From the sequence record PQ505080.1: 64,000 nt of DNA; one strand, written 5' to 3'. Position numbers and translations under genes: made by a program. This document shows positions 15,371 through 17,884 of the stretch, piece after piece. The notes beneath the pieces are model-generated. The model made no database searches. It saw nothing but the letters and a program-made list of their open reading frames with translations, and had not been told where the DNA came from. The stretch's first letter is position 1. Each line of letters begins with the position of its first letter. This DNA is from Escherichia phage HMD-6.

Positions 15371-17884
15371 TCTGCTCTTTTCCTACCATAAACGGCCCTA
15401 CCTGGCAAGTGGAATAATTGACGAGCCATTAATCCCGCACACTGTACAGATATACACGTAAAATAGTTATTGCATAATCTTTCATACTGTGGTAGCAGGG
15501 TCATTTTTACACGTTTTCCTTCCAAAAAATGCACATAATGCAGCTATTGCACAAAATTTAACCTGATGCACATTTTCAGTATACTGTCAACAATTAAAAA
15601 CCCTTATAAATCATACACTTACCCCACCACAAAAGCGTGCCCTACGTGAAAAATCGGGTGTAACTATAGCCGACAGATCTCAGAATCCACGTACGATCGC
15701 CATTCTATAGCCTGCGAAGTATTTATTCCAACCACAGAATAACGGAATAGTCAACACCTTTATACAATAATTATTCGTATAAACTGCATAACATAAATTT
15801 TCTCATGTGTCAACATTTTTCGTAAACAGTCCGAAATTGTCACGATAGGTTACTATAATCAGAGAAATCTTTAGTCGTCTAATGTTTACTGCACATAACT
15901 ATACTGACTGGAATCATTAGATGACTAATAGAAAGATAAGAAATAGTTAATAATGTAATTGTTTTACCTGTAACAATAAGGCAACTATGCAAACGAATGT
16001 CATGGCGCGACGGAGTCGCGACATAATATAAAAGCAGTAACAATCACCCCCGTGATAGTTTGCCTGCAAACTATTGATCAGATCATAGTTGCCTTGTATT
16101 TAGTTAATCATGACATAATAAGCAAGGCAACTATAGATCTGATCATAGTTGCCCTGCTTTTATATTATGTCATAGAAACGCCCGAAGGGGTGACCTGGTC
16201 ACCTGGCATAGCCAGCGAAATATTATTACCTTGCTAATTGTTTTCATGCAAACGAATGTCATGGCTTATCATCTTTGTGTAAACTGTCAGGGTGTAGACT
16301 ATTCAGGTGTAAACTATCCAGGCGTAAACAGTCTGCGCAGGAACAATCTATACGTGAACAATTTATACGTGAACAGTGAAACATGAAATAATAACAGTAG
16401 TTATTGTGTCAAAAGTGTATAAGGTGCCCGGTGTGTATAAGGTGTCACATTGTGCCCGGTGTGTCAGACAAGTTTTTCTCCTCTTTGTCAAGCACTGCAT
16501 GAAAAATTTACAATCTGGTATGGTAGCATTTTTGCGGCCCTGTTTACATTCAGAAGTGTATGTATAATCCTTGTTGTGTGGGCGTTTAGACGTCTGGACG
16601 GTCAGAAGTCCGCAGGTTAATAACTAATCTATTGGTTGCTAACTATATCCCCCACAAATAATAAGAAATGCAATTGTTATATGCGTAAACAGTAACTCAT
16701 GCTATCAATCCCTGTATGTATCGCCAGTGGTGCGCATAATGGGTATTATGTTAAATTGCCCGTAATGATAACGATTCTCACAATGATAAGTATTCTCATT
16801 CATCCACACAAAATAGCTTGCAAATGTTGCGCCACTGTGTGAACGGCCTCGCCTATTAATTTGCCTCACTGCTCCGATATTTGAGAATTGTTATAAGAAT
16901 GAGAAGTATTCCCATTCCGTCCGCCTGGCAGCACTCCTGTAGGTCAGGTCAAAATCGTGGCAGAACTGGACCCCCTTCAGATATTTCTGGCTGACTCTTC
17001 AGGCCTGTGTGGGAAAAGCCAACCTCTCCGGCGGCGGGGAGGGATCAATTAAAAAATTTACGTGGGGTATGAAGCGCTCTTCAGGCAAGGTGTGTATTAT
17101 GGGATGAAACCCTCTTCAGGCAATGATATTTGTGGGTGTGATATTTGCTGGAAAGCCAGATATGACGGGACTCCCGGCGGGGCAGGGGTAGTACAGGCAG
17201 GGAAAATGTGGAGAATGTAGTTGGGGAAATTGATCAGGCAGGTAGAGTATGGAATATGTTACAGGTATGTTAAATATGGAGGTAAGATATTTGTAAGGTT
17301 TGTGCGTAAAATCAAAGACTTAAGTGGTGTTGTGGTATTTTCTATAAATAATTCAAGTTTAATAGGTGATATTTGCCTCTATCCACTTTGTATGGTATCC
17401 ATATTCTAATTGAATTGGTTTACAAGTGTATATAAAGTATACAAATTAAAGATACAAGAAACCCCCCTCCCCCTTCGGCTACCATTCACCTTTTCCTCTG
17501 ACTGGTACTTAAACACTTATTCAGACTCTTCAGGTTATCACCCATATATCATATGGCAGTGACTGGTGTCCTCCGGCCCCTCTTTCGTCACCCGTCCGCT
17601 TCGCCATGCTAATGCCATAGCTAACTGTTCGGTTGTTCACCCTGTTCACTCAGGTGTATCTCCATACCCCTTCAAACCGAAGAGAACAGAAAACCCGAAT
17701 TACTCGGTAAAAGAAAAGAGAAGAACTTAATTTTATCAGGATAGGCAAGAATGTCAAGGCATGACTGCTCACTAAACAAGCAAACAGTCATGTGTGGGAG
17801 GTAAGTGATTGTGGTGGTAGGAAATTTAGTTGAAAGGTGTGTTATAGGTGCTTCCAGCACTTTAGACGGGCAGCTAATTGTGTG
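15371..17884. other. 2.5-kb non-coding repeat-rich region between convergent gene blocks (candidate origin, packaging or injection-control region)
   Basis: No convincing ORF; dense direct/inverted repeats, iteron-like arrays, nested palindromes, Fur-box-like motifs. Confidence 0.6.
16276..16378. repeat. iteron-like array (GTGTAAACT / CGTAAACAGT / ACGTGAACA variants, about 6 copies)
   Basis: Direct reading of tandem 13-16-bp related repeats. Confidence 0.55.

Follow-up and report, generated by a model that had tools for sequence, protein, structure and literature searches.

When the genome of phage rV5 was described, a grey box labelled 'non-coding' and containing no open reading frames (ORFs) was placed where two transcription units converge; a bidirectional terminator was expected at this box, and no bidirectional intrinsic terminator was found (PMC3606486). 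Short terminal redundancies of 458 bp have been reported for the related phages EdH4 and HdK5 (PMC6563267), and a terminal repeat of defined length, together with one fixed packaging start, for Gotham (PMC7471380). In Klebsiella phage KPP-1, a direct terminal repeat (DTR) of 514 bp with 2x coverage was assigned to the T7 type by PhageTerm (PMC9862379). Here we describe the corresponding locus of Escherichia phage HMD-6 (sequence record PQ505080.1), positions 15371-17884 of the 64,000-nt stretch of DNA that was analysed as a whole (the window). An original prediction made from the letters alone had pictured this locus as a gene-free region saturated with repeats and had offered four functions for it: a replication origin, a packaging (pac/cos) region, a genome terminus or a region controlling DNA injection. 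Comparison with related genomes reveals orthology between the centre of the region (16467-16925) and the terminal repeat of 459 bp found in its relatives. We estimate a probability of roughly 85% that this segment is a DTR forming both ends of the virion DNA, and that the region is the concatemer junction of a linear, non-permuted genome. The terminus and packaging options consequently stand, in the form of a DTR, while the cos and headful pac types do not. That the region is a DTR is already known for close relatives. For its anatomy, including the homology of the repeat across genera, the repeats in the arms, the palindromes and the block formed by a promoter and its transcript, no description was found in the literature, and the published accounts of HdK5, EdH4 and Gotham give the repeat length only, without internal or flanking elements.

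Genome ends and packaging type

The first 459 nt of the HdK5 record are identical to its last 459 nt, and both copies map to 16467-16925. Eight records start or end exactly at the borders of this segment (HdK5, EdH4, ECP2303, ECP2309, YN3, Pr121LW, Gotham and EcoIv14a_Aya), five of them carry the DTR at both ends, and the Gotham record annotates it as a repeat_region. Two further records, bov10K2 and bov22_2, begin at the 16925 border, so that at least ten independent records from different laboratories have common end positions to the base; the blastn table likewise has several unrelated records whose ends fall inside the region at identical query positions. The repeats of HdK5, EdH4 and Gotham (458-459 bp) and the rV5 box are orthologous to the DTR of the window, with 93-96% identity and the same length, borders and position between the gene blocks. 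Nothing essential differs, except that the window has a single DTR, located midway in the record, because assembly collapses the two copies of the repeat; for the same reason both gene blocks appear joined around a single DTR.

The fixed ends lie at 16466/16467 (TGTCA/GACAAG, the slash marking the cut, in the middle of the short palindrome TGTC-A-GACA) and at 16925/16926 (CCGCC/TGGCAG). The repeat opens with GACAAGTTTTT at what is here called terminus B and closes with CCGTCCGCC at terminus A. TGTCA/GACAAG is present at terminus B in all 13 relatives that are readable there. Conservation shifts sharply at both borders: the alignment collapses in the hypervariable sequence left of 16460 and stands at 94% or more to the right, the switch falling within a few bases of 16467, and an indel hot spot lies 10 nt right of 16925. 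Homology and orthology to the repeats of the relatives show the location and extent of the DTR and its two fixed ends. As judged from these comparisons, the packaging type is a short exact DTR of the T7 type and neither cos nor headful pac: the repeat stands at both ends in the orthologous sequences, from which the same arrangement is inferred for this phage, and the ends are fixed to the base in the eight records and the two further ones and are marked by motifs that recur across genera. Cohesive ends of the cos type are ruled out, since the relatives carry the 459-bp segment duplicated at both ends.

Several points weigh against reading the region as a concatemer junction with a terminal repeat. 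The ends of this particular isolate are themselves derived from orthology; the terminase sites, promoter firing, Rho termination and palindrome binding that enter the mechanism proposed below are predictions; and the TGTCA and 15-bp arrays beside terminus B appear to be at most accessory, because their copy number varies or the arrays are missing in viable phages. In addition, vequintaviruses have been called 'circular permutated' or headful by PhageTerm in two reports (PMC8407724, PMC13211470). These calls would fit headful packaging from a pac site in the region and permuted, terminally redundant DNA, the 459-bp repeat then being an artefact of assembly. Such an explanation is difficult to reconcile with the identical ends of so many independent records, with end motifs conserved across genera, with the 2x coverage that is confined to the repeat in KPP-1, or with the defined repeat and single packaging start of Gotham, and we regard it as highly improbable. 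Both dissenting reports look weak and are given little weight here, because one of them used tagmentation libraries and labels T4-like phages 'fixed'; its current records start at 16925 (PMC8407724). Table 1 of that report lists rV5-like phages as 'circular permutated' and T4-like phages as 'fixed', the reverse both of the established situation in T4 and of the other reports on vequintaviruses; the labels may have been swapped, or the tagmentation libraries may have produced an artefact.

With the 2.5-kb region as query, 121 phage records match at 85-96% identity, nearly all of them from Vequintavirus, and by this similarity the window is from a Vequintavirus, an rV5-like E. coli myophage. A search of 5,426 E. 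coli genomes for a host origin gave no match to the region, and a search of IMG/VR for more divergent copies returned the same two contigs only. Among the database entries, nineteen GenBank records named 'UNVERIFIED Campylobacter phage' (MG0656xx) are Vequintavirus genomes with approximately 87-91% identity; probably the host named in them is incorrect, or else contaminated samples were sequenced.

In rV5 the counterpart of the region sits between ORF 163 and ORF 164, and in the window it likewise separates two convergent blocks of genes, as the original prediction had stated. The plus-strand block is closed by an intrinsic terminator at 15342-15370, which comes immediately behind the stop codon at 15327-15329 and consists of a G+C-rich stem of 8 bp and then a run of T residues. 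The first minus-strand gene occupies 17885-18100. The description of the region as gene-free was borne out as well. Automated annotations of MiataMamis, NHEP1, PMBT16 and Mangalyan list 12-16 'hypothetical proteins' here, as would be the case if several small protein genes had escaped annotation. However, the longest ORF has 63 aa, no frame is kept open beyond approximately 70 codons across 18 relatives, and the third-codon-position bias that an adjacent 71-aa gene displays as a control (5/6/25) is absent from all candidate ORFs and sliding windows of the region. Searches of Pfam and PHROG with the ten longest ORFs gave no match, and most curated records leave the matching stretch without annotation, those of rV5 and the BASEL phages annotating nothing there. 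Missed protein genes can be all but dismissed. In Rfam 15, which includes the type III antitoxins, the region has no match at gathering score, and 15200-18000 has none even at E<=1. In the absence of a coding signal and an Rfam match, neither conserved small ORFs nor known non-coding RNAs (ncRNAs) account for the region, and the termini map here rather than elsewhere.

Homologous repeats in other genera and palindromes inside the repeat

The DTR of KPP-1 (Mydovirus) also lies in a non-coding gap between convergent blocks and aligns with the reverse complement of the window DTR, with approximately 50-55% identity over the repeat. Common to both are the terminus GRCGGAC, an invariant block at the centre (ATTTAACATAATAC..TTATGCGCACC, window 16727-16757), and TTGTAAATTT and CTTGACAARGAG shortly before the other terminus. 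Record KP12 starts at the DTR start of KPP-1. Two Seunavirus phages, PVP-SE1 and GAP31, have these motifs in collinear order as well, and there too the flanking blocks converge; across the genera the end motifs are GRCGGAC and TTGTnn/TrrCA. The central block, GGTGCGCATAATGGGTATTATGTTAAAT in the window (16727-16757), is approximately 99% conserved within the genus and is the longest block that the window has in common with KPP-1, PVP-SE1 and GAP31. These alignments show the DTR to be, at the level of its sequence, a conserved element of the subfamily. The three phages further resemble the window in having Fur-box-like palindromes and, upstream of terminus A, copies of CCTGAAGWG; KPP-1 and PVP-SE1 also have a C-rich hairpin ahead of this terminus and, directed at it, a promoter with an extended -10 element. 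They differ in that the palindromes stand at other positions and that the invariant stretch of approximately 270 nt described below is not detectable.

Fur-box-like motifs had been noticed in the region by the original prediction, and four 15-mers of this kind are indeed present in the DTR, at 16766-16780, 16784-16798, 16882-16896 and 16900-16914. The first two form a tandem pair, TGATAACGATTCTCA and TGATAAGTATTCTCA (16766-16798), that matches GATAATGATAATCATTATC at 14/19 positions; the others, TGAGAATTGTTATAA and TGAGAAGTATTCCCA (16882-16914), are likewise palindromes of this type, are highly conserved and end 11 nt short of terminus A. Boxes 1-3 come from a pattern scan, and box 4 (16900-16914) was read from the sequence, having four mismatches to the 15-mer and lying below the cut-off. 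Matches to the 15-mer with two mismatches were obtained at 16766 and 16784, and matches of 14/19 to the 19-bp Fur consensus at 16761, 16767 and 16779. Such sites are in excess in the window, where the 7-1-7 pattern occurs 19 times (6.2 +/- 2.2 expected) and sites of at least 14/19 to the Fur consensus 12 times (3.1 +/- 1.5 in simulations); in KPP-1 the 15-mer pattern occurs eight times against 0.69 expected. The palindrome TGAKAA-N3-TTMTCA is the largest repeat family of both the window region and the KPP-1 region, and all four phages compared, which have enterobacterial hosts and belong to the three genera Vequintavirus, Mydovirus and Seunavirus, are enriched in palindromes of this type and carry them within the DTR or close to it.

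Substitutions in box 1 among the relatives fall at its three central positions and box 4 also varies centrally, which would be expected for the operator of a dimer. The left half-site of box 2 is TGATAGG in every other aligned genome. The E. coli Fur operator (GATAATGATAATCATTATC; 7-1-7 TGATAAT-N-ATTATCA) is resembled by the DTR sites in the 14/19 match, the palindromic form and the free centre. It differs in the half-site, the recurring one here being TTCTCA/TGAGAA and not TTATCA/TGATAA. Host Fur and a phage-encoded dimer appear equally possible as the binding protein. The literature search on Fur boxes in lytic phages found nothing relevant. Inside the DTR, a consensus scan for promoters gave moderate matches only, none of which was singled out.

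Operators of the same type were observed at a second place in the window. At 5700-6375 there is another ORF-poor conserved stretch, found in 118 phage records including two Cronobacter phages and with no Rfam match, which is built of two tandem modules, each a strong Fur-box-like site followed by a G+C-rich CCCCGGTGnTTGTCTCCC segment. The two sites, 5985-6004 and 6121-6139 (GATAATGATAATCGTTCTC), match the Fur operator at 15/19 and 17/19 positions, respectively.

The non-coding arms and their repeats

The unusual repeat density on which the original prediction rested was confirmed by counting: no other 2.5 kb of the window is as dense in repeats. Repeated 10-mers cover 352 nt of the region, whereas the median over all 2.5-kb windows of the 64 kb is 122 and Markov simulations give 76 +/- 40 (maximum 199). 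For inverted 10-mers the coverage is 195 nt, the median 73 and the simulated value 79 +/- 36. Windows overlapping the region rank first in each of the two measures. The individual repeats were also recovered, with small shifts of position in some cases, and their anatomy was derived from an alignment of 18 genomes.

In the arm beside terminus B, the outer part (15371-15986) is non-coding, without codon periodicity, free of indels in the alignment (gap fraction 0) and approximately 85-95% conserved. C exceeds G on its plus strand, and at 15530-15650 the C/G ratio of the plus-strand RNA reaches 2.1-3.3, at or above the 95th-99th percentile of the window. A palindromic module follows at 15987-16265, bounded by 100% identical copies of the 20-nt direct repeat ATGCAAACGAATGTCATGGC at 15987-16006 and 16246-16265 (predicted at about 15983 and 16246). 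Its interior contains 18-nt inverted arms (16020-16037 and 16154-16171) and two sub-palindromes spaced by 60 nt. The consensus fold has a z-score of approximately -8, alike on both strands, which suggests a palindrome acting in the DNA and not an RNA made from one strand. In FV3 a clean deletion of 259 bp between the 20-nt repeats (15987-16245) has left one repeat copy; by its form the deletion is evidence of recombination between the direct repeats, and since FV3 lacks the module, the latter is dispensable. An insert of approximately 33 nt (AAACTCrGGCATAGCCyTCGTCTCrAGG) was noticed in the module of rV5, phita32 and SYGMH1. Its position, corresponding to 16115 or 16238 of the window, differs between phages, as that of a small mobile hairpin might. 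A cluster of GATC/TGATCA at 16075-16145 was considered as a P1-pac-like signal and rejected, the hexamers not being conserved in the relatives.

Closer to the terminus, at 16277-16385, there are degenerate 15-bp tandem arrays of the GTGTAAACTATCCAG and GAACAATCTATACGT types (3.5 and 2.3 copies by TRF), the copy number and sequence of which differ between relatives. They are absent from V18, navn and FFH2, all of them viable, and cannot therefore be an essential origin of the iteron type. The array of short repeats at 16403-16466 abuts terminus B. It is composed of GTGTATAAGGTG and CCCGGTGTGT units with three copies of TGTCA, the last of which ends at 16466, and the repeated units that had been predicted for 16416-16470 are found here, GTGTATAAGGTG at 16415-16426 and 16433-16444 and GTGCCCGGTGTGT at 16424 and 16452. 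Readable relatives have two to six copies of TGTCA in the last 150 nt, mostly as an array that is spaced at 10-11 bp and lies immediately ahead of the terminus.

The arm next to terminus A begins with a segment (16926-17130) that has indel hot spots after 16935 and 17042 and a G/C-rich hairpin at 17024-17043; a comparable C-rich hairpin is situated 60-150 nt before terminus A in PVP-SE1 and KPP-1. The three predicted copies of CTCTTCAGGC (CCTGAAGAG on the minus strand) start at 16995, 17077 and 17112, and a fourth, CTCTTCAGG, was found at 17526; CTCTTCAGG is the reverse complement of CCTGAAGAG. As the 9-mer CCTGAAGWG, this repeat occurs four times in one orientation in the arm and eight times in the whole window, where 0.49 copies are expected. 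The equivalent arm of PVP-SE1 also has four copies in the same orientation, with 0.04 expected for the whole 4.2-kb locus, and GAP31 and KPP-1 have one same-strand copy each upstream of terminus A. A strand bias of CTCTTCAGG across the window was rejected, and only the copies near the terminus count, because the three distant copies are Pro-Glu-Glu codons in minus-strand genes.

The purine-rich tract of the original prediction corresponds to 17090-17369, which is G-rich and C-poor on the plus strand, so that a leftward RNA would be C-rich and G-poor. The C/G ratio of the minus-strand RNA at 17369-17090 is 2.5-9.0, the extreme of the 64-kb window (99th percentile 3.1). Pairing of the G-rich half of the arm with the C-rich half in a long hairpin was rejected, as the match extends over 11 nt only. 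The tract is followed by a variable A+T-rich spacer (17370-17454, approximately 73% A+T).

Beyond the spacer lies a near-invariant non-coding stretch (17455-17722) with close to 100% identity in the 18 genomes, downstream of a promoter and corresponding to a putative G-rich minus-strand transcript of approximately 270 nt that would end in GAAGGGGGAGGGGGG. The invariant block as a whole, 17455-17790, is 96.4-99.5% identical in 118 records, compared with 93-96% for the DTR, and holds the most conserved 100-nt bin in 12.5 kb. No codon signal and no Rfam match were found in the approximately 270 nt. Folded as a single sequence the stretch has z-scores of -1.07 on the minus strand and -0.01 on the plus strand, with no strong structure; in consensus folds its 5' hairpin has a z-score of -3.5. 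Sliding consensus folds over the alignment gave the DNA-like palindrome and a few short hairpins only, the invariant stretch having no substitutions from which covariation could be read. A possible hydrophobic ORF of 21 codons, MVAEGGGGFLVSLICILYIHL, preceded by GAGGAAAAGG, was read by eye on the minus strand at 17406-17486, at the 3' end of the invariant transcript; its distal half falls in the variable spacer and has no coding signature.

The promoter itself, TTGACA-16-TGaTAAAAT on the minus strand at 17730-17757, is a near-consensus sigma-70 promoter with an extended -10 element (11/12 match), the best in the region, and is directed towards the DTR. Its hexamers and the TG are invariant in all 18 genomes. 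In the most divergent relative the spacer has been rewritten from 16 to 18 nt and the initial bases have also changed, and the sequence is identical again from approximately 8 nt downstream of the -10 element. As far as can be read from conservation, the promoter is a real one and its transcript is under constraint, this pattern being their footprint. An extended -10 promoter in the equivalent place and orientation, without the invariant stretch, is found in KPP-1 and PVP-SE1. Just upstream of the -35 element there is a conserved inverted repeat, CATGACTG...CAGTCATG (17760-17792, minus strand; 14-bp consensus stem, z -4.2), which is kept in 18/18 genomes, with single edge substitutions in FV3 and one IMG/VR contig (L003); it is possibly an operator, or a hairpin that ends the minus-strand gene block. 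The literature search on transcript maps of this subfamily found nothing relevant.

Origins at which an RNA-DNA hybrid primes synthesis include ColE1 RNA II and the R-loop origins oriF and oriG of T4, and the mitochondrial CSB II element is of the same kind. Part of the region might similarly be a replication origin, besides or instead of a packaging signal: the promoter at 17757-17730 would make a G-rich RNA ending in GAAGGGGGAGGGGGG, and its persistent hybrid with DNA next to the A+T-rich 17370-17454 would prime synthesis. The conserved promoter, the near-invariance of the approximately 270 nt downstream of it, for which neither coding nor a known RNA offers an explanation, and the composition of the minus-strand RNA, G-rich from 17690 to 17410 and then entering the stretch of approximately 73% A+T, are consistent with this. 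A further point in favour is that the authors of the rV5 study were unable to place an origin by skew analysis (PMC3606486). On the other hand, none of the relatives has a mapped origin, the promoter of KPP-1 and PVP-SE1 comes without the G-rich invariant stretch, the iteron-like 15-bp arrays are dispensable, no initiator gene is linked to the region, and the resemblance to R-loop origins is one of geometry only. An origin in the region therefore appears doubtful to us. A transcription-primed origin in the invariant element would be compatible with the DTR as a second function beside it.

The same promoter and transcript could be read in another way, as part of a region that mainly encodes regulatory or anti-defence ncRNAs, such as decoys derived from repeats, with the termini being incidental. 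The related phage phiTE has pseudo-ToxI repeats that act as decoys. The many tandem repeats of 15-60 nt, the conserved promoter with its invariant transcript, and the hypervariability of the arrays, as expected under arms-race selection, would suit this explanation. It is opposed by the lack of any Rfam family at E<=1, including the type III antitoxins, by fold z-scores that are weak except for the DNA-like palindrome, where they are equal on both strands, and by the position of the variable arrays exactly against a mapped terminus. We consider such a role for the region improbable, more so than an origin, and retain the reading of the region as a concatemer junction.

Proposed packaging model and its meaning for the subfamily

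The concatemer junctions of T7 and T3 contain a terminal repeat of 160 and 230 bp, respectively, the short-repeat arrays SRL and SRR, pacB and the phiOR promoter. The locus in the window is similar in having a short exact terminal repeat, flanking arrays of short repeats, a putative recognition region in a unique arm, and a promoter that lies several hundred bp away and is aimed at one end, in the geometry of phiOR before the right end. It is dissimilar in other respects: there is no sequence similarity, the phage is a myovirus with a genome of 135-140 kb, and the promoter is of the host sigma-70 type and not of the phage-RNA-polymerase type. Unlike in T7, both neighbouring operons read towards the ends and no early genes are read inward from an end.

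In the mechanism that we propose, terminase would recognise sites in the non-coding arms during packaging. Candidate sites on the terminus-A side are the oriented CCTGAAGWG repeats and the invariant stretch, and on the terminus-B side the phased TGTCA array. The enzyme would cut concatemers at 16466/16467 and 16925/16926, and strand-displacement synthesis would then duplicate the DTR, as it does in phages of the T7 type. The arms may in addition insulate the junction from the converging operons, by the intrinsic terminator on one side and by C-rich, G-poor untranslated RNA suited to Rho on both. From composition we infer Rho-loading zones at 15530-15650 and 17369-17090 that would keep the operons from transcribing the junction, which would also explain why the authors of the rV5 study found no bidirectional intrinsic terminator. 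The strong host-type promoter (17757 to 17730) would send a non-coding transcript towards terminus A, and the Fur-box-like palindromes in the DTR would serve as sites for a protein dimer, which might be the Fur of the host or a factor of the phage.

Two features elsewhere in the window may be recorded here. A group I intron was identified at 62809-63087 (Rfam RF00028, 81 bits); in rV5 the large terminase gene is split into three segments (PMC3606486). A cluster of seven tRNA genes occupies 60477-61289, and one of them (60946-61044) is unusually long and was given a four-base anticodon and no amino-acid assignment by ARAGORN.

It is tempting, although rather unlikely, to see in the Fur-type operators in and beside the DTR and at 5985-6140, together with the host promoter driving an invariant non-coding RNA, a regulatory layer common to the whole subfamily. 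If this were true, the processing of genome ends or a transcription-primed origin would be coupled to the iron status of the host, or to a dedicated phage repressor, in a strictly lytic phage; the Fur-box-like sites would matter only if binding were demonstrated. The identification of the DTR has more direct consequences. Its position at 16467-16925 tells annotators where to open the genome and cautions against calling genes in this region, and its identity accounts for the 'non-coding' box that has been unexplained since the rV5 paper. For the engineering and therapeutic use of Vequintavirinae, the arms are the first places in which to seek the cis-acting packaging signal and possibly an origin, the candidates being the invariant 17455-17757 element, the CCTGAAGWG repeats and the core of the DTR.

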